Assembly: GCA_963798915.1 (NCBI GenBank)
Contig: CAWCVB010000005.1
Span: 324,012 to 388,011, forward strand
Origin: an uncultured Gemmatimonadales bacterium
GTDB lineage: Bacteria; Gemmatimonadota; Gemmatimonadetes; Gemmatimonadales; GWC2-71-9
DNA length: 64,000 nt
Reading direction: 5' to 3'
Made by a program: the position numbers and the translations under genes. Under the pieces are notes generated by a model. It had not been told where the DNA came from and searched no databases. It worked only from the letters and a program-made list of their open reading frames with translations. This document shows, in pieces, positions 1 through 49,241 of the stretch. Every line of letters starts with the position of its first letter. Positions within the stretch are counted from its first letter, which is position 1.

Positions 1-768
1 GGCACGCCGCTCGTCGTCGCCGAGGGCGACCGCGTGCTCGGGGTGGTCCACCTCAAGGACATCGTGAAGGGCGGCATCAGCGAGCGCTTCGCCGAGCTGC
101 GCGCGATGGGGATCAAGACGGTGATGATCACCGGCGACAACCCGCTCACCGCCGCCGCGATCGCGGCCGAGGCGGGGGTGGATGACTTCCTGGCCGAGGC
201 CACGCCCGAAGCCAAGCTCGAGCTGATCCGGAAGTACCAGGCGGCGGGCCAGCTGGTCGCCATGACCGGGGACGGCACCAACGACGCGCCGGCCCTCGCG
301 CAGGCCGACGTCGCTGTGGCCATGAACTCCGGGACCCAGGCGGCCAAGGAAGCCAGCAACATGGTCGACCTCGACTCGAACCCGACCAAGCTCATCGAGA
401 TCGTCGAGATCGGGAAGCAGCTCCTCATGACGCGCGGGGCGCTGACGACGTTCAGCATCGCGAACGACGTCGCCAAGTACTTCGCGATCATCCCGGCGGC
501 GTTCGTCGGCATCTATCCGGCGCTGGCGTGCTCAACATCATGCGCCTGGCAACACCCGCGAGCGCCATCCTGTCGGCGGTGATCTTCAACGCGCTGATCA
601 TCGTCGTACTGATCCCGCTGGCGCTGCGGGCGTCCGGTACCGGCCCGCAGGCCGCGGCGCGCGCTGCTGCGGCGACAACCTGCTCATCTACGGCGTGGGC
701 GGGCTGGTGGCACGCCGTTCATCGGCATCAAGCTCATCGACCTGATCCTCGTGGCCCTGGGGGTCGAC
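1..768 (+). pseudogene. kdpB: K+-transporting P-type ATPase subunit KdpB, 3' portion (5' end outside the window), with at least two frameshifts
   Basis: Frame 1 reads [105 protein letters not shown]. The conserved tail continues in a second frame near 530 ([32 protein letters not shown]). It continues in a third frame near 700 ([17 protein letters not shown]). Confidence 0.85.
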
Positions 769-1406
769 ATGGAAGGCGCACGGCCAGGGCGGGCCCAGGC
801 TGCGAGCGGCCGTCCCTCGCTGCTGGCTCGTTGTTCACCGTGCTGACCGGAGTGGTGTATCCGCTGGCGATGACCGGTCTCGCGCAGTTGTTCTTCCCGC
901 GACAGGCCAACGGCAGCCTGATCGTCCGGCACGGGGAGGTCGTCGGCTCAGCGCTCATCGGACAGTCTTTCGACGCCCCGGACTACTTCTGGAGCCGGCC
1001 CTCGGCCACGCGCCGGCTATCCGTACAACGCGCGCCGGCTCCCGGGGCTCGAACCTGGGACCGACTGAGCCCGGCTGATCGATGCGGCGCGTGAAGCGAG
1101 CGCCAGGCCTCCGGGCCGCCGATCCGGAGACGCGCCCGGTGCCCGTCGACCTCGTGACCGCTCCGGGCAGCGGGCTCGATCCGCATATCTCGCCGGCTGC
1201 CGCGCGCTACCAGGTGGGCCGGGTGGCCGAAGACCCGCGGTCTCGATCCGGCCGCCGTTGAGGCGCTGGTGACGCGCGCCACTGAAGGACGGGCGTTCGG
1301 CGTGCTCGGCGAGACACGGGTCAATGTTCTGCTGCTCAACCTGGCGCTGGACTCCCCTCGGTCAGTCCGCCGCCCCTCCGGCGCGCGGAAGGCGGTCGCC
1401 GGATGA
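769..1406 (+). pseudogene. kdpC: K+-transporting ATPase subunit KdpC, frameshifted
   Basis: The ATG at 769 is followed by KdpC motifs spread over different frames. These are [49 protein letters not shown], then [30 protein letters not shown], then VNVLLLNLALD. The stop overlaps the kdpD ATG (ATGA at 1403-1406). Confidence 0.75.
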
Positions 1407-4110
1407 CGGGGAGACCGGCCGGACCCAGACGCGCTGCTCGCCCAGGTGCAGCGACGACCGGGGACCGGCGCGTCCGTGGCCGCCTGAAGGTCTTCTTCGG
1501 CGCGACCGCCGGCGTCGGGAAGACATACGCCATGCTGGAGGAGGCGCGGCGCCGCCGGCGTGAGGGCGTGGACGTCGTGGTAGGTGTTGTGGAAACCCAC
1601 GGTCGGCGCGAAACGGAGGCGCTGCTGGATGGGCTCGAAGTCCTGCCACGGCGCATGCTCGAGCACCGGGGTGTCCGCTCTGGCGAGTTCGATCTCGACG
1701 GCGCGCTCGCCCGCGCGGCCGGGGCTCGCTCCTGGTCGACGAGCTCGCGCACACCAACGCGCCCGGGCTCGCGGCACGCAAAGCGGTGGCAGGATGTCGA
1801 GGAGCTGCTCGGGGCCGGGATCGACGTCTACAGCACGGTGAACGTCCAGCACGTTGAGAGCCTCAACGACGTGGTGGCCCGCATCACGATGTCCAGGTAC
1901 GCGAAACGGTGCCCGACGCGGTGCTCGAACAGGCCGACGAAATCGAGCTGATCGACTTGCCACCCGAGGAACTGCTGCAGCGGCTGTCCGAGGGCAAGGT
2001 CTACATCCCGCACCAGGCGCAGCGGGCCACGGAACAACTTCTTCCGCAAGGGCAATCTCATCGCGCTGCGGCAGCTCGCGCTCCGCAAGGCCGCCGAGCG
2101 CGTCGACGACGCAGATGCAGACCTACCGCCGCGCGCTAGGCGTGGCAGAGATCTGGCCGGTGACGGAGCGGATCCTGGTGCGCGGTGGGACCGACGCCGG
2201 TGCGGCCACGGCTGGTGCGCGCCGCCAAGCGAATGGCGAACCGGCTTGGTGCCGAGTGGACGGCGCTGTTCATCGAGACACCCGACGCCACGCCATTGGG
2301 CGGACGCTAGACCGGGCGCGCGTCTGGGAGACGCTGCGCCTCGCGGACTCCCTTGGCGCCAACACCGTGACGATCACGGGTTCGGATGCCGGCCGGGAGG
2401 CTACTCAACTACGCTCGGACCCACAACGTCGGACGCAGTCGTCGTCGGCAAGCCAAGCCGGTCGCGCTGGCGCGAGCTGCTGTTCGGATCAAAGATCGAC
2501 GGCGTCATCCGCCACAGTGGCGACATCGATGTCTACATCATCGCCGGCGCGCCGGAGGCGGTGCCGGCGCGCGGGTTGCGGCCGGTGGTGCCGGTCGAGC
2601 GGGCGCCGTGGACCGTCTACGCCCGTGTGGCCGTCATCGTGGCCGTGCTGACGGTGGTGGCGGTGATGATGCGGGAGTTCTTCTCGCCGGTGAATCTGGT
2701 CATGGTGTACCTCGTGGGCGTGCTCGTCATCGCCATGCGGTTCGGACGCGGGCCCTCGGTGCTCGCCGCGGTGCTGAGCGTTGCCGCGTTCGACTGGTTC
2801 ACGGTTCCGCCCTACTATACGTTCGCCGTCACCGACACCAGTATCTCCTCACGTTCGTGGTCATGCTGGGCGTCGCGCTCGCGATCAGCGGGCTCGCCGT
2901 GCGGTTGCGCGAGCAGGTGCTGCGGTCACGCGCGAGGGAGCATCGCACGGCCGCCCTGTACGAAATGAGCCGGGAGCTGATCGAGACGGCCGACCTCGAC
3001 GAGGTCCTTGTGGCTGGAACGCGGCAGCTCAGGACTGTCTTTGGTCTTCGCCCCGTCATTCTGCTTCCCGGCGAGGAGAAGCGGCTGGTGCCATGGCCGG
3101 GGACGGCGGAGGAGCCCGCGCCCGTAGTGGGTCCACAGGAGCTCGGCGTTGCCCAGTGGGTGTACGACCATGGGGAGCGCGCGGGCGCTGGCACCGACAC
3201 CCTGCCATCGGCGAATGGGCTCTACCTCCCGCTGTCGGCACCCGCCGGCACGGTGGGCGTGTTCGGGGCGCTGGACATTGATGCGGCGCGCTTTCGCGAT
3301 CCGGAGCAGCTGCACCTGCTCGAGACCTTTCTCCATCGTGTGGCCGCGGGCGTCGAGCGGAGCCGACTGGCTGACGAGACTCGGCGCGTTCGCGAACTCC
3401 AGGAGCTGGACCGGCTGAAGAGCGAGTTCGTGGCGACGGCGTCGCATGAGCTCAAGGCACCGCTCGCCAGCCTTGCGCTTACGGTCGGCCGCCTCCGGAG
3501 CGCGTCGCCCGGAGTCGGCAGCGAATGGATGGCGCAGCTTGACGCGGCCGAGGAGCAGGTCGTGCGACTGCGTCGGCTGGCTGACGATCTGCTCGACCTG
3601 GCTCGGCTCGAGGCCGGCCGCGTCGAGCTGCACATCCTGGCGGTCGATGCCGGGGCGCTCGTCCGTGAGCAGGTCGACCTGCTGCAACAAGTGGCGGCGG
3701 AGCGGGGCGTACGGCTCGGGCTCGATGTGCCGGACGGCCTCCCGGCGGTCGCTGCGGACCGTAACCGCCTCGGCCGAGTCATCGACAACCTGGTGCTGAA
3801 CGCGCTTCGGCAGGTCGGGGTCGGAGGGCGCGTACTCGTGTCGGTGGACGCGTTCGGCCGCTTCGTGCAGGTTTCCGTCGCGGATGACGGGCCGGGAATC
3901 TCGATCGAGGATCAGGCGCGCATCTTCGACCGGTTCGTCCGACTCGGGCAGGCGGGGCCCGACGGCAGTGGCCTTGGCCTGCCGATCGCACGCGAGATCG
4001 TCCGGGCACACGGCGGCGCGATCTGGGTGGACTCCGGCCTGGGCCCGGGTAGCGTCTTCAGCTTCACAGTGCCGGTCGCGGCCGGCGACGGAAAGGATGC
4101 GGCGGAATGA
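1403..4110 (+). pseudogene. kdpD: Sensor histidine kinase KdpD. The N-terminal sensor, Usp and TM half is broken by several frameshifts. The C-terminal GAF and kinase core is uninterrupted from about 2830.
   Basis: Consecutive KdpD motifs sit in different frames. These are RPDPDALLAQVQ (from ~1416), RGRLKVFFGATAGVGKTYAMLEEARRRRREGVDVVVGVVETHGRRETEALL and RHAKRWQDVEELLGAGIDVYSTVNVQHVESLNDVV (1403 frame). Next come ELIDLPPEELLQRLSEGKVYIP (1909 frame) and NLVMVYLVGVLVIAMRFGRGPSVLAAVLSVAAFDWF (2246 frame). From ~2830 there is one open frame with QYLLTFVVMLGVALAISGL, YEMSREL, AGAGTDTLP, the H-box FVATASHELKAPL, DDGPGI and GSGLGLPIAREIV, running to the stop at 4110. Confidence 0.8.
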
Positions 4111-4571
4111 GCAGGCCGGGGATACGACTGGCGGATTACTTCGATCTGGAGAACGTGCGACTCGATCTGGCCGCGACCACGAAGCCGGAGGCTATCCGCG
4201 AGCTGCTGGCGAGCTTCGGGCTGCCACCCGAGAGCGAGGCTGCCACGCTCCGAACCATTCTGCGGCGGGAAGAGATGGGAAGCACCGGTATCGGCCGTGG
4301 AATTGCGGTGCCGCATGGGCGCACGCCTCTGGTCTCGACACTGCGGGTGGCGTTCGGGCGCTCGGTGGGCGGCATTCCCTACGAATCTGTCGACGCAGCG
4401 CCGGTGCATTACCTGTTCCTGCTGCTTGCGCCGCCGGTCGAGGTGTCGAATGAGTACCTGCCGGTACTGGGGCGCATCGCCGAACTGGCGAAGGACCCGG
4501 CAACCGGCGGGGAGCTCGCGGCAGTGGAGTCGGTCGAGGATCTGCTGGCGCTCTTCCAGGAGGGAGACTGA
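4107..4571 (+). CDS. ptsN: PTS EIIA-type-2 domain protein (EIIA-Ntr / PtsN-like)
   Basis: 154-aa ORF. REEMGSTGIGRGIAVPHG (active-site His context) and HYLFLLLAP match the PtsN/EIIA-Ntr family. The start overlaps the kdpD stop by 4 nt. Confidence 0.8.
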   Translation: MSRPGIRLADYFDLENVRLDLAATTKPEAIRELLASFGLPPESEAATLRTILRREEMGSTGIGRGIAVPHGRTPLVSTLRVAFGRSVGGIPYESVDAAPVHYLFLLLAPPVEVSNEYLPVLGRIAELAKDPATGGELAAVESVEDLLALFQEGD

Positions 4572-4639
4572 TCGCTCCGGCCGGCACGTAGGCCTTGATC
4601 TCATGCATGATGCTGCGCTCCCAGGCTAGATGTCCACCT

Positions 4640-6126
4640 CTGCCGGCACGGGTTCCGCAAAGTGGCTCGGCCGGAGTTTGGCTCAATCTCTCTGTCCCCG
4701 CCAGGCGCAGCCGCCGCGCAAGCTCCCTCTCCTTCCAGAGCGAATAGATGGCCGGGATCACCACCAGGGTGAGCAGCGTTGCGCTCACCATGCCTCCCAC
4801 CATCGGGTCTGCGATGCGTTTCATGACATCCGCCCCGGTCCCTTCGCTCCAGAGAATCGGCGGGAGGCCGCCGATCACCGCCGTGACGGTCATGATCAAG
4901 GGACGTACCCGGAGCATCGCACCCTCGGTGACTGCCTGGGCCAGGTCCCCGCGCTCCGGCACCCGGCCGCTGGCCCAGCGCGACCGCCACGGCTGATCCA
5001 GTTGGACCAGCATGATGACGCCGGTTTCGGCCGCCACTCCCGCCAGCGCGATGAACCCGATCGCGACTGCCACGCTCAGGTTGTAATGCGGCGGCCACAT
5101 GAGCCACATCCCGCCCACCAGCGCAAAGGGAAGCGAGAGCATCACGATCGCACTTTCGGCCACGCTGCCGAAATTGAGATAGAGCAGCAGCAAGATGATG
5201 CCGATGGTGACGGGAACCACGACCCTGAGCGTGCGGTTGGCGCGCTGCATCGCCTCGTATTGGCCCGACCATTCCAGCCGGTATCCGGGAGGGAGCGCCA
5301 GTCTGGCCCCGAGCAGCTCCTTGGCCTCCGCGACGTAGCTGCCCACGTCGCGGCCTGCACATCGACGTATACCACATTGTTGAGGTAGCCATTCTCCGAC
5401 TTGATCAGCGTCGGCCCGCGCACGACCGCAAGGTGCGCCAGCGTGCCGAGCGCCACCTGGGCTCCTGACGGCGTTGCGACGAGGGTGTTCGCGATGACGT
5501 CGGGACTGTCACGGAGGTCACGAGGATAGCGGACCAGTACCGAGTAACCTTCCCGCCCACCGCTGTGCTGGCGGCCATCAGCAGGTCGCCGACCGGCATT
5601 CCATTACGCGCGGCAGCGGTCCGGTCCACCTTCACATCCGCGAAGCGACCGCTCATAGTCCGGCGAATTCCGACTTGGTTCCCGGGACGCCGGGCAGCAA
5701 CGCCTCGATGTGCTTTCCGATCTGCTCCAGGGTGCCGAGATCCGGGCCGAAAACCTTGATGCCGATCGGCGTCTTGATTCCGGTGGTCAGCATGTCGAGC
5801 CGGTTCTTGATCGGCATCGACCACATGTTGGCGACTCCCGGCGTCTTCACCGTTGCAGTGGCGTCGCTCACGATCGAGTCGTAGGCTACTCCGGGGCGCC
5901 ATTCGCGCTTGTCCTTCAGGATGGCAATGGTCTCAAGCACGGACATCGGTGCCATGTCGGTCGTCGTCTCGGCGCGCCCGATCTTGCCCAGCTCCATCTT
6001 GACTTCCAGGATTCGGGCCAGGGCCGCGTCCCGCTGCTGCAGCACCGCCCGCTGGCCGGTTTCATCAACGTGGAGTCGCTCGACATAGCCGCTGAAGCGC
6101 GGGGTTGACCTGTACGCCGGCCACAT
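4640..6126 (-). pseudogene. Heavy-metal efflux RND pump (CusA/CzcA family) remnant: C-terminal half only, frameshifted
   Basis: Three minus-strand pieces in different frames carry consecutive CusA/CzcA motifs. Piece 6126-5653 has ELGKIGRAETTTDMAPMSVLETIAILKDKREWRPG..ANMWSMPIKNRLDMLTTGIKTPIGIKVFGPDL. Piece 5456-~5350 has VRGPTLIKSENGYLNNVVYVDV. Piece 5346-~4700 has GSYVAEAKELL..LEWSGQYEAMQRA..LYLNFGSVAESAIVMLSLPFALVGG..GFIALAGVAAETGVIML..RVRPLIMTVTAVIGGLPPILW..VVIPAIYSLW. Only about half of a ~1000-aa pump is present, and there is no stop at the expected end. Confidence 0.8.
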
Positions 6127-6304
6127 CGCTGGAAGCCGACTCGACCTACGCCCTGCACATGGGAACTGGACTGATGACTGCCGCCGGTGATACTGTGAGC
6201 ATACGTGCCGGTCTCGGGATAGGCGGGCAGTGGCTCATGGGGGGCATGATGTTCACGTGCATGACGAGTTTGGTCGCGGTTCGCGCGGCGGCGCTGGCGC
6301 CCTG

Positions 6305-6842
6305 ATGGGCGCTCGTCCGGGAGTCGCGGCGCTGGTTGTCAGCTTGGTGTTTCTCGCGGGTGGGTGCTCAGACCCGCGGCAAGGCGGGCCGAGGAATGCA
6401 GCTGGCGACGGCGCGCCCGATACCCCGCCACCCCGGGGTATGCGGGGTATGATGTCCGGCCGGATGCCGATGATGGGGGGTGCACCTGCCGATACCGCCG
6501 CCGCCCCACAGGCGAGCGTTGCTCCCGCGCCCGCGGCGGCGGGCTGTCCAGCGACAGCGCAGCCGCTCGTGGAGCAGGGTCGGCGGATCTTCAGCGGCAC
6601 GGGCAACTGCTTCGCCTGCCACGGACCGAGTGCCGCCGGTACGGTGGCGGCCCCCGACCTGACTGATACGCAATGGCTCGACATTGATGGAACCTACGCC
6701 TTGATTGTCGGGCTGGTCCGCGCCGGTGCCCCGGCACCCGCAACAATATCCGGGTCTCATGCCGCCGACGGGTGGAGCGCCGTTGAGCAATGAGCAGGTC
6801 TGCGCCGTTGCGGCGTACGTGTATTCGCTTCATTCCAGGTGA
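6305..6842 (+). pseudogene. Class I cytochrome c lipoprotein with one frameshift near 6735-6745
   Basis: Lipoprotein signal MGARPGVAALVVSLVFLAGGC and the heme motif CFACH at 6608-6622. The conserved tail QQYPGLMPPTGGAPLSNEQVCAVAAYVYSLHSR continues in another frame to the TGA at 6840-6842. The original frame stops at 6793. Confidence 0.65.
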
Positions 6843-7012
6843 CGCCGGCCCGGCCCGCTCGGGGCCGCGGCGTCTCATGCAGGCAGCCACGCTGCCCGGC
6901 GTGTCTCTCCGGCCCAGACACTGTTGGTTGGATTCCTCAGCATCGTGTGTCTTTTGGCAAGCATTGTAGCGCCTTGACGACCGCCGCCCTCGCGTGACCA
7001 CACTGAAGCCGC

Positions 7013-7555
7013 ATGGATACTGCATGTATTTACCATGCCGTGGCGCTGTCCAGCCGGGGCCTTCGCTTGAGCCATCTTACGCTCGCCTACAACACCCTCG
7101 AAGGAACGCTTGCTCTCGGCGCGGGCGTTCTTGCCGGCAGTGTCGCGCTCGTCGGTTTCGGGGCCGACAGTCTTATCGAGGTGACGGCGAGCGGAGCGGC
7201 TGACGCTCCGCATCGTCGGTGGCTGCTTCCTGGCGCTCGCCTTCTGCGTGGCCTGGGATGCGGTGGGCGCGCGGCTCAGGCGGGAGGCGCCGAGTGAATC
7301 CATTCTGGGCATTGTGATAGCCGCCCTCTTCGATCATCGTCGCCGTACACAGCAGCGCACTCGAGGCCGAAGTCGAATCAGACATCGCTCTGTGCCTTCC
7401 TGTCGGTGATCCTCCTCGGCGGCTTGATTCTGAATGCAGTGCTCGGGTGGTGGTGGGCGGACCCCGTCGCTGCGCTGGTCATGACGCCGATCATCGCCGG
7501 CGAGGGGGCTGAGGGACTGCGCGGTGAGTCGTCGTGCGGAGATCAGTGTCACTGA
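7013..7555 (+). pseudogene. Small cation-transporter family protein (CDF-related), frameshifted with internal deletions
   Basis: Motifs lie in three frames. These are RGLRLSHLTLAYNTLEGTLALGAGVLAGSVALVGFGADSLIEV, then ERLTLRIVGGCFLALAFCVAWDAVGARLRREAPSESILGIVIAAL. They end with SSALEAEVESDIALC and FLSVILLGGLILNAVLGWWWADPVAALVMTPIIAGEGAEGLRGESSCGDQCH, up to the TGA at 7553-7555. Confidence 0.55.
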
Positions 7556-7608
7556 GGAGATGACCCTCGAAGGGCAGGGCTTGTCGTGACGACGCAGGTA
7601 CCGGGACG

Positions 7609-7642
7609 AAAAAACGGCCAGCTTCGCATTCAAGCTGGCCGT
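7609..7642 (-). terminator. Intrinsic terminator closing the minus-strand tRNA operon
   Basis: An 11-bp stem (ACGGCCAGCTT 7614-7624 with AAGCTGGCCGT 7632-7642) and a 7-nt loop. The plus-strand A6 run at 7609-7614 gives U6 after the hairpin on the minus-strand transcript, 10 nt past tRNA-Pro. Confidence 0.8.
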
Positions 7643-7652
7643 TTGATATCCA

Positions 7653-7727
7653 TCGGGGCGCCCGGATTTGAACCGGGGACCTCCTGCTCCCGAAGCAGGC
7701 GCGCTAACCGGGCTGCGCTACGCCCCG
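7653..7727 (-). tRNA. tRNA-Pro (anticodon CGG)
   Basis: The reverse complement is CGGGGCGTAGCGCAGCCCGGTTAGCGCGCCTGCTTCGGGAGCAGGAGGTCCCCGGTTCAAATCCGGGCGCCCCGA. It folds as a cloverleaf with a 7-bp acceptor, TTCAAAT T-loop and anticodon loop TTCGGGA. Confidence 0.95.
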
Positions 7728-7767
7728 TGTGGGCTGAAAGCTCCAGTCGAAAAGCACTAGTTTCGCT

Positions 7768-7873
7768 CAGCCTTCAGCCTTCAGCCTCAGCCTTCAGCCT
7801 TCAGCCTTCAGCCTTCAGCCTTCAGCCTTCAGCCTTCAGCCTTCAGCCTTCAGCCTTCAGCCTTCAGCCTTCA
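7768..7873. repeat. (CAGCCTT)x15 heptamer tandem array (one 6-nt unit at 7782-7787) filling the tRNA-Arg to tRNA-Pro spacer
   Basis: Units were counted directly. The array abuts the tRNA-Arg 3' end at 7874. Read on the transcribed minus strand the unit is TGAAGGC / AAGGCTG. Confidence 0.95.
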
Positions 7874-7947
<74 letters not shown>

Positions 7948-7972
7948 TCGGCGGCGCAGAACACGCCAGCCA

Positions 7973-8046
7973 TGGGCGGTACAAGGCTCGAACTTGTGAC
8001 CTCCACGATGTCAACGTGGCGCTCTAACCAACTGAGCTAACCGCCC
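7973..8046 (-). tRNA. tRNA-Val (anticodon GAC)
   Basis: The reverse complement is GGGCGGTTAGCTCAGTTGGTTAGAGCGCCACGTTGACATCGTGGAGGTCACAAGTTCGAGCCTTGTACCGCCCA. The anticodon loop is TTGACAT. Confidence 0.95.
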
Positions 8047-8051
8047 GAGGA

Positions 8052-8171
8052 GACGGACAGACGGCTAGACGGACGGACGGCTAGATGGAGAGTGGTCTGG
8101 TGACGGATGCCATTCCCTCACCGGAGGCCACCAACCGTCTAGCCGTCCAGCCGCCTAACCGTCTTCCTGCC
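8052..8171. repeat. Two inverted arrays of five octamer units around an imperfect central stem; this is the whole tRNA-Val to tRNA-fMet spacer
   Basis: Left arm 8052-8091: GACGGACA GACGGCTA GACGGACG GACGGCTA GATGGAGA. Right arm 8132-8171: CAACCGTC TAGCCGTC CAGCCGCC TAACCGTC TTCCTGCC. The arms pair in one continuous register (p+q=16223). By hand count that is 28 of 40 Watson-Crick pairs. Confidence 0.85.
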
Positions 8172-8172
8172 A

Positions 8173-8246
8173 TAGCGGGGGTGGGATTTGAACCCACGAC
8201 CTCCGGGTTATGAGCCCGGCGAGCTACCAGACTGCTCCACCCCGCG
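8173..8246 (-). tRNA. Initiator tRNA-fMet (anticodon CAT)
   Basis: The reverse complement is CGCGGGGTGGAGCAGTCTGGTAGCTCGCCGGGCTCATAACCCGGAGGTCGTGGGTTCAAATCCCACCCCCGCTA. It has a 1:72 mismatch (C:U) and three G:C pairs closing the anticodon stem. It closely resembles E. coli tRNA-fMet. Confidence 0.9.
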
Positions 8247-8334
8247 ACGCGACCCGTAACTTCAGGTCCATTCCCCGTGGCGGCCTTGGCCGCCACTAAT
8301 CATTGGGTCAGGGCTTAAGCCCTGCCGCCGAGAC

Positions 8335-8352
8335 CTGCTCCACCCCGCGACG
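8335..8352 (-). repeat. 18-nt direct copy of the tRNA-fMet 5' end plus 3 nt of its leader (a tRNA gene fragment)
   Basis: CTGCTCCACCCCGCGACG at 8335-8352 is identical to 8232-8249. That stretch covers the first 15 nt of tRNA-fMet plus 3 nt of leader on the minus strand. Confidence 0.8.
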
Positions 8353-8385
8353 TTGTGACGCTTAGCGCTCAGCGCTGAGCGCTAG

Positions 8386-8458
8386 AGCGGGAAACGGGAC
8401 TCGAACCCGCGACCCCAACCTTGGCAAGGTTGTGCTCTACCAACTGAGCTATTCCCGC
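8386..8458 (-). tRNA. tRNA-Gly (anticodon GCC)
   Basis: The reverse complement is GCGGGAATAGCTCAGTTGGTAGAGCACAACCTTGCCAAGGTTGGGGTCGCGGGTTCGAGTCCCGTTTCCCGCT. The anticodon loop is TTGCCAA. Confidence 0.95.
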
Positions 8459-8562
8459 GAGCGGACGACAATGCTAGCCAGCCGGTTCACGCAACGCAAC
8501 GCCAGCCCCGCACCCGTCCTGTCCCACGCTGCCGCTCCCACGCTGCCGCGCGTCCCACCAAA

Positions 8563-8635
8563 TGGAGGCGAGGGGGATCGAACCCCTGACCTCGTGAATG
8601 CCATTCACGCGCTCTCCCAACTGAGCTACGCCCCC
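8563..8635 (-). tRNA. tRNA-Ala (anticodon GGC)
   Basis: The reverse complement is GGGGGCGTAGCTCAGTTGGGAGAGCGCGTGAATGGCATTCACGAGGTCAGGGGTTCGATCCCCCTCGCCTCCA. The G3:U70 identity pair is present. Confidence 0.95.
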
Positions 8636-47291: not shown

Positions 47292-48100
47292 TGCTCGAGG
47301 TACTGCTCGCCAGCCCGGATCGGCGCATCAATGGTGTTGCCGCGCCAAGGAGCAGGACAGGCGTAGGCAGAACTGTACGAACAGAACGGATTGCGTGCGC
47401 GGTTGAAGTCAAGACGCCAACCGCGGGCTCCTGCCGGTATGAGTGCCACAAAGCGACCCGCGGGATAGGTCCCCTGACCGTTGGTTCCGTCTCGGAAGTA
47501 GATCTCGAGATCCGCCTCATCGGTCGCTGGATCGGGAAGGCGCAGCACTGCGAGACGCACATCGTGTCCATTGATCGGCACAAGAACGGAGCCCGCCTCC
47601 TCGGCCAGTACCTCGACGCCATCCGGTGACAGTACGGTGCGCCGACGAGTCGAATCGGGTGGAATGAGGCGGCCGACGAAGCTGAGGCTCGGGTCGAATG
47701 GGTACCAGGCGGGCCGCCCCCGTGCCCTGGTGCTGTCGAAGATGGTCACTACCGGGCGATCCGCAGTTCCATTGGCGACCAGCAGGTAATGTCCCGCGCG
47801 CACGGGCCGTCCGCGCGACATGGCCTGACGACCCTGCGGTCCGACCAGCTGCATCGAGCCACCTGTCGTCGTGACCTGCAAGGACCCGATGCCAGGAAGG
47901 GCGAGGTCGGCATCGGCCGGACCCAGCTGAAGACCGGAGCCGACCGGCAGCTGCGCCACGGCGGCATAGGGAGAAATCGGCGATTTGGCCAGCCACGTCG
48001 CAAAGGCATCGCGCTCGGCGCGAATGAGGGCCGGCTCCTGCGCCGGAAGCTGGCCGGCGACGATGCAGAGGAGGGCCAGCACTGCACGGGGCTGATTCAC
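47288..48100 (-). CDS. DUF1684 domain protein
   Basis: 270 aa with FRDGTNGQGTYPAGRF..LDFNRARNPFCSYSSAYACPAPWRGN. Confidence 0.8.
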   Translation of the reverse strand: MNQPRAVLALLCIVAGQLPAQEPALIRAERDAFATWLAKSPISPYAAVAQLPVGSGLQLGPADADLALPGIGSLQVTTTGGSMQLVGPQGRQAMSRGRPVRAGHYLLVANGTADRPVVTIFDSTRARGRPAWYPFDPSLSFVGRLIPPDSTRRRTVLSPDGVEVLAEEAGSVLVPINGHDVRLAVLRLPDPATDEADLEIYFRDGTNGQGTYPAGRFVALIPAGARGWRLDFNRARNPFCSYSSAYACPAPWRGNTIDAPIRAGEQYLEH

Positions 48101-48137
48101 AAGTGGGGCTCCCGGAAGTTCGACTCACGATGCGCGA

Positions 48138-49241
48138 CTACCACACCCACATCCGTGCTGGATCGAGCACCTTGGCGTGTTCGTGTACCGGCTCGCCGCG
48201 AATCATCTGCTGCAAAAGGATGGCCGTAATAGCCGCAAGCAGGATCCCGTTCCTGCCATGGCCAGTCGCATACCAGAGATGACCGAGGTCCGGCGCAGGC
48301 CCGACGAGAGGCAGTCCATCAGGTGTGACTGGCCGCAGACCGGCCCAGCTGCGGCTTTCAGGACGAGCACCGAGCGGAGGGCAAAGTTCCCGCACGGATG
48401 CCCAGATCCGTTGCTGGCCAATGTCGGTGACAGAAGCGTCAAAACCGGCATACTCCATGGTCGAGCCAATGAGGGCCTCGCCTCCGCGCGCCAGGACGTA
48501 CGCGTGTTGATGATAGAGAATGGCTCGCCGCATGTCGGACGGCCAGGTGAAGGCCGCCATCTGTCCGCGCACGGGCTCCACCGACAAAGGGCGGGGCAAA
48601 CCCTCGAGGCGCCCGGACCAGGCGCCGCCCGCCACGATGATGTCGTCGGCCGCAAACCGGTCGTCGGCAATGACCGCCGTGGCCCGGTCCCCATCCCGCT
48701 CGAGGCGCGTGGCGGTGCGGCGGAGAATGGTTGCGCCGTGCTGCACGGCGTCGGCCAGCAGCGCATTGACGAGGCTGACCGGATCGAGCGCGCCATCCAG
48801 GGGAGACCAGAGCGCGCCCAATGGCGCGCGCAACCAGGGCCACTGCTGCCGGACCTCGCCCGCATCCAGCCAGTCGCACCGGTGTCCCTGTTGCCGCTGC
48901 CATGCCACGTCCGCCTTGAGGCCGGTCGCGTCGGCTTCGTCGAAGGCAACCCGGGCGATACCCTCGCGCCAGAACCCCACGTCGATGCCGGTGGCATCCT
49001 GAAGCTCCGCCGCCAATTGCACATACCGGTCGCGGCTGGCGACGCCCAGCTCGTAGAGTGACTCGCTCTTGTCGCTCTCGATCTGGGGCGCAAGCATTCC
49101 TCCCGCCGCGCGCCAGGCTGCCCCGGCGACGTCGGGGCGGTCCAGGACGAGGACCCGGCGCCGCTCGCGGGCGAGTTCACGGGCACACGCTGCCCCTATC
49201 GCGCCGCCCCCGATTACGATAACATCATAGTTGGAAGCCAC
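48138..49241 (-). CDS. FAD-dependent oxidoreductase (glycine oxidase ThiO-like, DAO family)
   Basis: 367 aa with YDVIVIGGGAIGAACARELA and a C-terminal ATGHGRNGILLA. Confidence 0.8.
   Translation of the reverse strand: MASNYDVIVIGGGAIGAACARELARERRRVLVLDRPDVAGAAWRAAGGMLAPQIESDKSESLYELGVASRDRYVQLAAELQDATGIDVGFWREGIARVAFDEADATGLKADVAWQRQQGHRCDWLDAGEVRQQWPWLRAPLGALWSPLDGALDPVSLVNALLADAVQHGATILRRTATRLERDGDRATAVIADDRFAADDIIVAGGAWSGRLEGLPRPLSVEPVRGQMAAFTWPSDMRRAILYHQHAYVLARGGEALIGSTMEYAGFDASVTDIGQQRIWASVRELCPPLGARPESRSWAGLRPVTPDGLPLVGPAPDLGHLWYATGHGRNGILLAAITAILLQQMIRGEPVHEHAKVLDPARMWVW

Follow-up and report, generated by a model that had tools for sequence, protein, structure and literature searches.

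Genes of the kdp locus and its neighbours

The window, by which we mean the whole 64,000-nucleotide stretch analysed on contig C5 of an uncultured Gemmatimonadales bacterium, opens inside a kdp operon and continues into cus, cytochrome c and cation-transporter genes and the last gene of a tRNA cluster (Table 1; negative positions lie upstream of its first base). The assembly is a metagenome-assembled genome of 17 contigs with a completeness of 84.8%. Gene-level claims were checked by frameshift-aware protein-to-DNA alignment against intact orthologues of relatives.

Table 1. Features of the locus in window positions, with their reading-frame state or supporting evidence
Feature	Position	Strand	State and basis
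Second histidine kinase	upstream of window		1 shift at -4968
kdpA	upstream of window		11 shifts (frameshift-aware alignment)
kdpB, 3' third	1-765	+	3 single-base shifts, near 523, 627 and 713
kdpC	807-1361	+	3-5 single-base shifts between 1011 and 1229
kdpD, N-terminal sensor half (KdpD, Usp, start of DUF4118)	1395-2837	+	12-13 shifts
kdpD, C-terminal half (tail of DUF4118, GAF, HisKA, HATPase_c; Pfam)	2838-4110	+	frame unbroken
PTS EIIA-2 (PtsN-like) gene	4107-4571	+	intact; PF00359 profile positions 2-143 of 144
cusA/czcA-type RND pump remnant	4675-6060	-	residues ~577-1052 of orthologue only
cusB fragment, residues ~55-73	6049-6105	-	joined in frame to cusA residue ~577
Class I cytochrome c	6230-6842	+	1 shift near 6700-6730 (three-frame translation)
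Small cation-transporter-like remnant, WWWADP motif	7043-7555	+	2-3 shifts
Hairpin, 13-bp stem then U6	7610-7646	-	fold -25.5 kcal/mol, z = -5.4
tRNA-Pro(CGG), last gene of six-tRNA cluster	7653-7727	-	ARAGORN and Rfam

The first 1.28 kb or so of kdpB lies outside the window, on its upstream side, and carries 13 further shifts; the gene matches TIGR01497 in colinear pieces and was also aligned to the KdpB of the relatives G027 and G015 and to intact DNA of L121. Once the frames are corrected, KdpF, KdpA, KdpB, KdpC and KdpD each reach full length and follow their family models colinearly, and the EIIA and kdpD genes share 4 nt at the kdpD stop, as they do in L121, the closest intact relative. 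In both respects the locus resembles the known kdpFABC-kdpD operon with an EIIA(Ntr)-type partner, and in E. coli EIIA(Ntr) binds and stimulates KdpD. It differs from the known operon in its response regulator, which sits upstream of the kdp genes together with a second KdpD-like kinase and not downstream of kdpD. A search of 5.8 billion proteins with the corrected, full-length KdpB returned no near-identical independent sequence (best match 83% identity), a scan of JGI metagenomes with the KdpD core gave no near-identical copy (best 79% identity, on a fragment), and an exact look-up of the EIIA protein for independent copies of the species found nothing.

Further to the right, the cusA remnant, aligned to the CusA of G027 and G025, has shifts near 5664 and 5357 and a frame-shifting deletion of about 28 nt near 5551, and frame translations show that it stays open beyond the expected stop. 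Only positions 588-1041 of the 1051-position model TIGR00914 are matched, in four pieces, instead of its full length. The cusB-cusA junction is the scar of a deletion of about 2.6 kb, as shown by tblastn and alignment to the cusB of G027 and G025. One frame of the cytochrome c holds the haem site CFACH and another its C-terminal motif MPPTGG...YVYSL, and PF00034 is matched on the first piece only. Compared with four relatives, among them an intact paralogue on contig C2, the cation transporter lacks two internal stretches of about 55 and 40 nt. Judged by their sequence, the deleted cusBA and cation-transporter genes look like genuine gene remnants. Real deletions in these adjacent genes show that decay does occur around here, and they raise the prior for some real lesions in kdp as well.

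The tRNA-Pro gene marks the edge of a locus that varies between lineages: in the genus comparison, the interval from the upstream RND operon to tRNA-Pro has another gene content in other species, and the kdp operon has no match in them. Such an absence would also fit ongoing loss. The closest kdp genes among sampled relatives are those of G027, in another family of the order (75-78% amino-acid identity), and the GC content of the kdp tract is 0.69-0.72 vs about 0.66 for the contig. Among the hallmarks of an island, tRNA adjacency and variability within the genus are present and GC is slightly raised; the gene lists contain no integrase, and direct repeats were not identified. The hairpin at 7610-7646, which emerged only on folding after a simple terminator scan of 7300-7800 had been negative, is best interpreted as terminating the tRNA operon on the minus strand, possibly as a bidirectional terminator.

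Extent and spectrum of the frame breaks

The original prediction, that almost every gene between 1 and 7555 is broken, is borne out by frameshift-aware alignment, and the damage is more extensive than it stated. About 50 frame breaks, of two kinds, and in addition several deletions lie between -4968 and 7555, from about 5 kb upstream of the window onwards. The dense patch covers window positions -2932 to 2837 (C5:321080-326848), that is kdpA, kdpB, kdpC and the N-terminal half of kdpD, with about 45 shifts of 1-2 nt each in 5.8 kb (about 0.8%); the right-hand part, 4675-7555, holds the deletion-bearing cus and cation-transporter remnants. The minimum numbers of frame changes predicted for kdpB, kdpC and the kdpD sensor half (two, three and four) agree with the three, three to five and 12-13 found in the window. 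So do the claims of a cusA without its 5' half, with at least two shifts and no stop at the expected end (three shifts; residues 577-1052), of a single shift in the cytochrome c, and of at least two shifts and internal deletions in the cation transporter. The kdpD kinase core and EIIA were said to be intact, and are so over 2838-4571, where Pfam identifies the tail of DUF4118, GAF, HisKA and HATPase_c and a full-length PTS_EIIA_2. The other 56 kb of the window, described as clean, proves to be so, since a single frame runs unbroken through its only two codon-model flags (23032 and 23194) and through the one stretch without a gene call (48081-48435). As to the limits proposed for the block, the terminator hairpin and tRNA-Pro do close it at one end; at the other it starts upstream of the window edge, beyond which kdpA and the second histidine kinase are also affected.

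In control alignments of 10 relatives there were no shifts in kdpA and kdpB except one call in G015 kdpA, and 0-3 shifts per gene in kdpC and kdpD; because the kdp genes of relatives give few shifts or none, the counts at this locus lie far above method noise. The codon model undercounts inside clusters, where it called 12 shifts in this block vs the 46 that alignment gives from -4968 to 2837. The last shift of the patch falls at 2837, an abrupt end inside the DUF4118 domain of kdpD and away from any gene edge; at the patch rate, the probability of zero events in the next 2519 nt is 3e-9. Compared with the intact operon DNA of L121, the stretch from kdpB to the N-terminal half of kdpD contains 35 gaps that are not multiples of three, 30 of them of 1-2 nt, and beyond a boundary event at 2840 the gaps in the C-terminal half of kdpD and in EIIA are solely multiples of three.

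Natural indels favour homopolymers and deletions, vary in size and are fewer than substitutions. The kdp tract shows neither this spectrum nor the accompanying substitutions and stops: its events comprise 24 extra bases vs 21 missing ones, their homopolymer context is that of random positions (runs of at least 4 near 4% of shifts vs 6.5% of random sites), and the frame-corrected tract contains zero in-frame stops. Gaps of more than one codon are restricted to sites where intact orthologues vary too, and none is specific to the window. Mismatches at residues invariant in 11 orthologues amount to 2.4-5.0%, within the range of intact lone orthologues such as those of G015 and G027, and in KdpB most of them adjoin shift sites. 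What the tract does show is the pattern of consensus error, single-base indels in otherwise conserved, stop-free coding sequence, with clustering independent of gene boundaries and an enrichment at contig ends in the assembly. Counting indels against orthologous loci, a check that had been suggested for the decay reading, points to a technical rather than a mutational spectrum of the kdp lesions, which are not supported as decay.

Three simple causes were rejected. Homopolymer-linked shifts are absent and a nanopore- or HiFi-type homopolymer error model is unsupported; slipped-strand natural mutation is likewise unsupported, as the shifts show no homopolymer association; and GC-driven failure as the sole cause does not account for the intact stretch 3001-4000, with a GC content of 0.70 that is as high as in the broken part.

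Frame breaks elsewhere in the assembly

The sole rpoC of the assembly is split at C5:489509, the sole nrdJ, at C6:478164, is frameshifted and split, hppA is split too, and no fewer than six RND pumps are broken into colinear pieces. Further dense shift clusters occur in a polysaccharide locus, a restriction-modification gene, an RHS gene, an FAD oxidase and an M13 peptidase, and contig C17, likely a contaminant, carries a second, complete gyrA with 11 shifts of the same non-homopolymer signature. The 3 kb next to contig ends show an enrichment of shifts of about 3-fold. Outside clusters, the genome-wide codon-model total of 346 shifts can only be a maximum, since about half of the isolated candidates in other places turn out to be normal gene boundaries.

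Lesions of the kdp type thus reach essential single-copy genes (rpoC, nrdJ), as expected of error. The original prediction had taken the contrast with the clean 56 kb to argue against uniform sequencing error, and had named a comparable frameshift density elsewhere in the assembly as evidence to the contrary. The contrast does not exclude error, which in this assembly is patchy and not uniform, and comparable density was indeed found, in the other dense clusters and in the frameshifted sole copies of rpoC and nrdJ. A localised cluster of frameshifts is no evidence against sequencing error, because error in long-read assemblies of metagenomes follows local coverage.

Probable consensus errors and gene remnants, and rival explanations

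We consider it likely that two things are superimposed beside the tRNA cluster, namely consensus indel errors in kdp and genuine remnants of cus and transporter genes. The dense breaks in kdpA, kdpB, kdpC and the N-terminal half of kdpD would be residual consensus indel errors, in a tract most likely assembled from a small number of long reads or from unpolished ones, perhaps because of a low-coverage bridge or of an accessory region present in only part of the population. The data show what the lesions look like, how sharply the patch ends and that similar lesions occur in essential genes and in further patches of the assembly; what we infer is the technical cause (low depth or no polishing) and, with it, why the sequence changes so suddenly from error-rich to error-free. 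In the right-hand part (4675-7555), the fusion of cusB' to cusA' and the shortened transporter would be real remnants, produced by the deletions of about 2.6 kb and 28, 55 and 40 nt, and the scattered single-base shifts at -4968 and in cusA, the cytochrome c and the transporter may have the same error origin as those in kdp. In the organism itself, the kdpFABC-kdpD-EIIA operon is probably unbroken and probably functional.

False pseudogenes of this kind are a known product of long-read assemblies (PMC12007338, PMC8103633). The likeness lies in 1-nt indels that fragment genes while the protein is conserved (PMC12007338, PMC8103633, PMC8011154), in the involvement of essential genes, in the concentration of errors in poorly covered stretches and at contig ends, and in a completeness estimate lowered despite few contigs. 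The kdp errors differ in being unusually concentrated, about 0.8% in one 5.8 kb tract, and in having no homopolymer association, unlike systematic nanopore errors (PMC8011154).

The decaying island of the original prediction survives in part, in the lineage-variable locus at the tRNAs and the real-looking cus and transporter deletions, and gives way where the kdp lesions show a technical spectrum. Extended to the whole 12 kb block, with kdp shifts that are real and arose after the operon became dispensable, and with the kdpD core and EIIA under selection, it is in our view unlikely. Variable content next to tRNA genes, the truncated cusBA remnant and the transporter with internal deletions do liken the locus to known decaying islands, from which it differs in that neither an integrase (in the gene lists) nor direct repeats were identified; the absence of a kdp match in other species of the genus agrees with decay, and the 1.7 kb left intact corresponds to two genes that may be useful. 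The most numerous lesions, those in kdp, nevertheless depart from a natural mutation spectrum: insertions about equal deletions, homopolymer bias is absent, nearly all events are of 1-2 nt, and there are zero stops and no excess change at conserved residues, when even five substitutions per indel would predict about 5 stops and about 50 invariant-residue changes. Moreover, the only copies of rpoC and nrdJ bear the same lesion type, and the intact stretch begins mid-domain without an obvious new start site. A real but localised indel-only process in a living population, for example error-prone synthesis in one tract, appears highly improbable as the source of the roughly 45 kdp indels; if true, it would give frameshifts without substitutions that stop abruptly inside kdpD.

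Less probable than decay of the whole block, and on balance improbable, is that the assembler joined in a low-coverage piece of a different strain or organism, chimeric or foreign and of poor consensus. The closest sampled kdp in another family of the order and not in the genus, the raised GC content and the low-quality foreign sequence binned into the genome as contig C17 all speak for such a join; however, the error-rich tract begins and ends inside genes of one colinear operon, and its error-free continuation (the C-terminal half of kdpD and EIIA) shares its operon architecture with L121. Both flanks are continuous with the contig, and a simple foreign insertion is therefore not indicated. 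An explanation by biological decoding of the shifts, through programmed frameshifting or an unusual code, has nothing in its favour beyond corrected frames that encode well-conserved proteins. The roughly 45 shifts run in both directions in unrelated contexts without a slippery motif, and the rest of the window is decoded normally, so that the diversity of contexts effectively refutes this idea already.

Under the preferred combination of consensus errors and adjoining gene remnants, the frameshift patch is largely a data-quality problem, not a decaying island. The genome serves as a species representative, yet its patchy indel errors make false pseudogenes, rpoC and nrdJ included, and any gene loss, pseudogenisation or reduced completeness inferred from it in unpolished form is unsafe. 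The biological residue is modest: a variable locus at a tRNA cluster, a deleted cusBA remnant and a probably functional kdpFABC-kdpD-EIIA operon.

Frame breaks in and around the block

The DNA was aligned by dynamic programming that allows for frameshifts to intact orthologues from relatives, and the resulting shift counts are collected in the table with the other coordinates. The broken frames of the kdp, cus, cytochrome c and transporter genes, as originally predicted, are borne out by the alignments, by family models, by frame translation and, for the kdp genes, by control relatives. The breaks in the kdp genes reach further and lie more densely than had been stated, a second KdpD-like kinase and kdpA, both upstream of the window, being broken as well. 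Family-model searches agree with the alignments for the kdp genes, returning colinear pieces with no model positions lost, and in the cytochrome c gene the haem site and the C-terminal motif lie in different frames. As had been claimed, no break interrupts the kinase half of kdpD or the full-length EIIA-2 gene, and the rest of the window also proved clean on checking. When the same alignment was run as a control on the kdp genes of ten relatives, kdpA and kdpB were without shifts, except for one call in kdpA of the relative G015, and kdpC and kdpD had 0-3 shifts per gene.

Features of the block, its surroundings and frameshifted loci elsewhere in the assembly (window positions, negative values lying upstream of its start; C numbers denote contigs of the assembly, C5 carrying the window at 324012-388011)
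Feature	Position	Observation
Second KdpD-like kinase	-4968	1 shift; upstream of window
Phenol_MetA_deg family outer-membrane gene	-4156 to -3353 (C5:319855-320658)	Intact; between second kinase and kdpF
kdpF	Upstream of window, after Phenol_MetA_deg family gene	Intact; 30 codons
kdpA	Whole gene upstream of window	11 shifts
kdpB		16 shifts, 3 inside window
kdpC	Inside window	3-5 shifts
kdpD	Between 1473 and 2837	12-13 shifts
kdpD kinase half and EIIA-2 gene	2838-4571	Unbroken
Overlap of kdpD and PtsN-like EIIA-2 gene	4107-4110 (5797-5800 in L121)	4 nt (ATGA)
cusB fragment	6049-6105	Matches cusB residues ~55-73; continues in frame into cusA residue ~577
Six tRNA genes	7653-8635	Minus strand
Tandem repeat	7767-7873	7 nt (TCAGCCT), 15.4 copies, perfect-looking; between tRNA-Pro and tRNA-Arg
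Polysaccharide-synthesis locus	C5:200007-212093	Flag cluster (C5:200-212 kb), second dense patch on C5; sugar dehydrogenase, asparagine synthase, O-antigen ligase and beta-helix proteins broken
Restriction-modification gene	Start of C3	Flag cluster
RHS gene	C1	Flag cluster
FAD oxidase	C2	Flag cluster
M13 peptidase	Start of C11	Flag cluster
Sole rpoC	C5:489187-493504	Single frameshift, colinear split (family-model search)
Sole nrdJ (class II ribonucleotide reductase)	C6:478073-479786	Single frameshift, colinear split (family-model search)
hppA (H+-pyrophosphatase)	C6:381579-383605	Single frameshift, colinear split (family-model search)
Example of frameshift-rich stretch	C17:49203-51702	

Lesion spectrum of the kdp tract

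In bacteria, small indels of natural origin cluster in homopolymers, are biased to deletions and vary in size. The kdp tract holds about 45 events in 5.77 kb (-2932 to 2837), with 24 extra and 21 missing bases; homopolymers of at least four bases lie near 4% of them, compared with 6.5% of random sites, and their sequence context is indistinguishable from that of random positions in the same tract. The closest intact kdpA-B-C-D-EIIA operon is that of L121, a Gemmatimonadales MAG, and direct DNA alignment to it gives 38 gaps across kdpB and the following genes as far as the N-terminal half of kdpD, of which 35 break the triplet frame by their length and 30 measure 1-2 nt; beyond a boundary event at 2840, the C-terminal half of kdpD and EIIA have gaps in multiples of three only. 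This end of the patch falls inside the DUF4118 domain of kdpD, and at the rate seen within the patch the following 2.5 kb would be free of events with a probability of 3e-9.

Once frames are corrected, no in-frame stop is found in the kdp genes, and gaps exceeding one codon are confined to loops that are also variable among intact orthologues. Of the residues invariant in 11 orthologues, 2.4-5.0% differ in the window, the same range as in intact orthologues without a close sister (those of G015 and G027), and most such differences in KdpB adjoin a shift site. Natural decay with as few as five substitutions per indel would be expected to leave about 5 stops (probability of none, 0.007) and to alter about 50 of the invariant residues. 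Corrected KdpB contains all P-type ATPase motifs and has a full-length best match of 83% identity among 5.8 billion proteins. The kdp lesions fit random errors of the consensus in a single tract with poor support, not mutation.

Frameshifts elsewhere in the assembly

The source assembly (3.31 Mb, 17 contigs, completeness rating 84.8%) was scanned throughout with a codon-usage Viterbi model for same-strand frame switches not ending at a stop. The 346 switches flagged are clustered, and enriched about threefold within 3 kb of contig ends; family-model searches also returned at least six RND pumps in colinear splits. A frameshifted rpoC, when it is the only copy, cannot be of biological origin; indel errors are therefore demonstrably present in the assembly, in a patchy distribution. 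The contrast with the clean 56 kb of the window had been taken to argue against uniform sequencing error; as a ground for excluding error it is not supported, with errors so distributed and with the sole rpoC and nrdJ split. Frameshifts of comparable density do occur elsewhere in the assembly, in dense clusters, which is the outcome that the original prediction had itself named as refuting it. Pseudogenes that are false in this way have been documented for long-read assemblies (PMC12007338, PMC8103633, PMC8011154).

Contig C17 (69.8 kb) is frameshift-rich over most of its length. It carries a further complete gyrA, which shares only 52% identity with the intact gyrA of C1 and has 11 single-base shifts, located outside homopolymers. 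The contig is therefore probably a contaminant of low coverage that was binned with the genome and bears the same error signature.

Deletions, explanations and the surrounding locus

Only the part of cusA from residue ~577 on remains, on the minus strand; the gene carries three frame-shifting lesions and lacks a stop at the expected end, in accordance with the earlier description and as confirmed by family-model pieces, alignment and frame translation. Nine codons that the orthologues of G027 and G025, used for comparison, both have are also missing from it, together with a frame shift close to 5551, and its in-frame join to the cusB fragment implies a deletion of about 2.6 kb. The shifts and internal deletions ascribed to the small cation transporter were upheld by alignment: it has 2-3 shifts, is ~31 codons short and is without two conserved segments of ~18 and ~13 residues present in four relatives, these comparisons including an intact paralogue on C2. 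Unlike these genes, the kdp tract has no mid-size or large deletions, so the two sets of lesions are read as different processes, and from their sequence the cus and transporter genes look like true remnants.

The locus upstream of the tRNA cluster is variable. Of the other species of the genus, G003 keeps the upstream RND operon but has ~10 kb of other genes before the tRNA cluster, and G006 differs again; searching the other species of the genus yielded no match to the kdp operon.

A mixed explanation is considered likely, in which the kdp shifts would be technical and the deletions in the cus and transporter genes real; the technical cause is one we infer from the spectrum of the lesions together with the pattern across the assembly. 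An accessory region present in only some members of the population might also account for low coverage at the locus. The original prediction of a decaying island retains the cus and transporter deletions and the variable locus in its favour and loses the kdp shifts, and wholly real decay across the block is improbable, the lesion spectrum of the kdp tract not being that of mutation. A chimeric low-coverage insert seems less probable still, and anything else takes the remainder; the collections searched contained no near-identical independent sequence. The block does exist in the sequence as deposited, but for the most part it does not belong to the organism, and the useful outcome is caution over this reference genome.

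GC content is ~0.66 in the contig and higher, 0.69-0.72, in the first 4 kb of the window, and the best protein matches come from Gemmatimonadales and Gemmatimonadota MAGs. The overlap of kdpD with the EIIA-2 gene, found in both the window and L121, suggests, for this lineage, coupled translation of the KdpD kinase and an EIIA(Ntr)-type partner.
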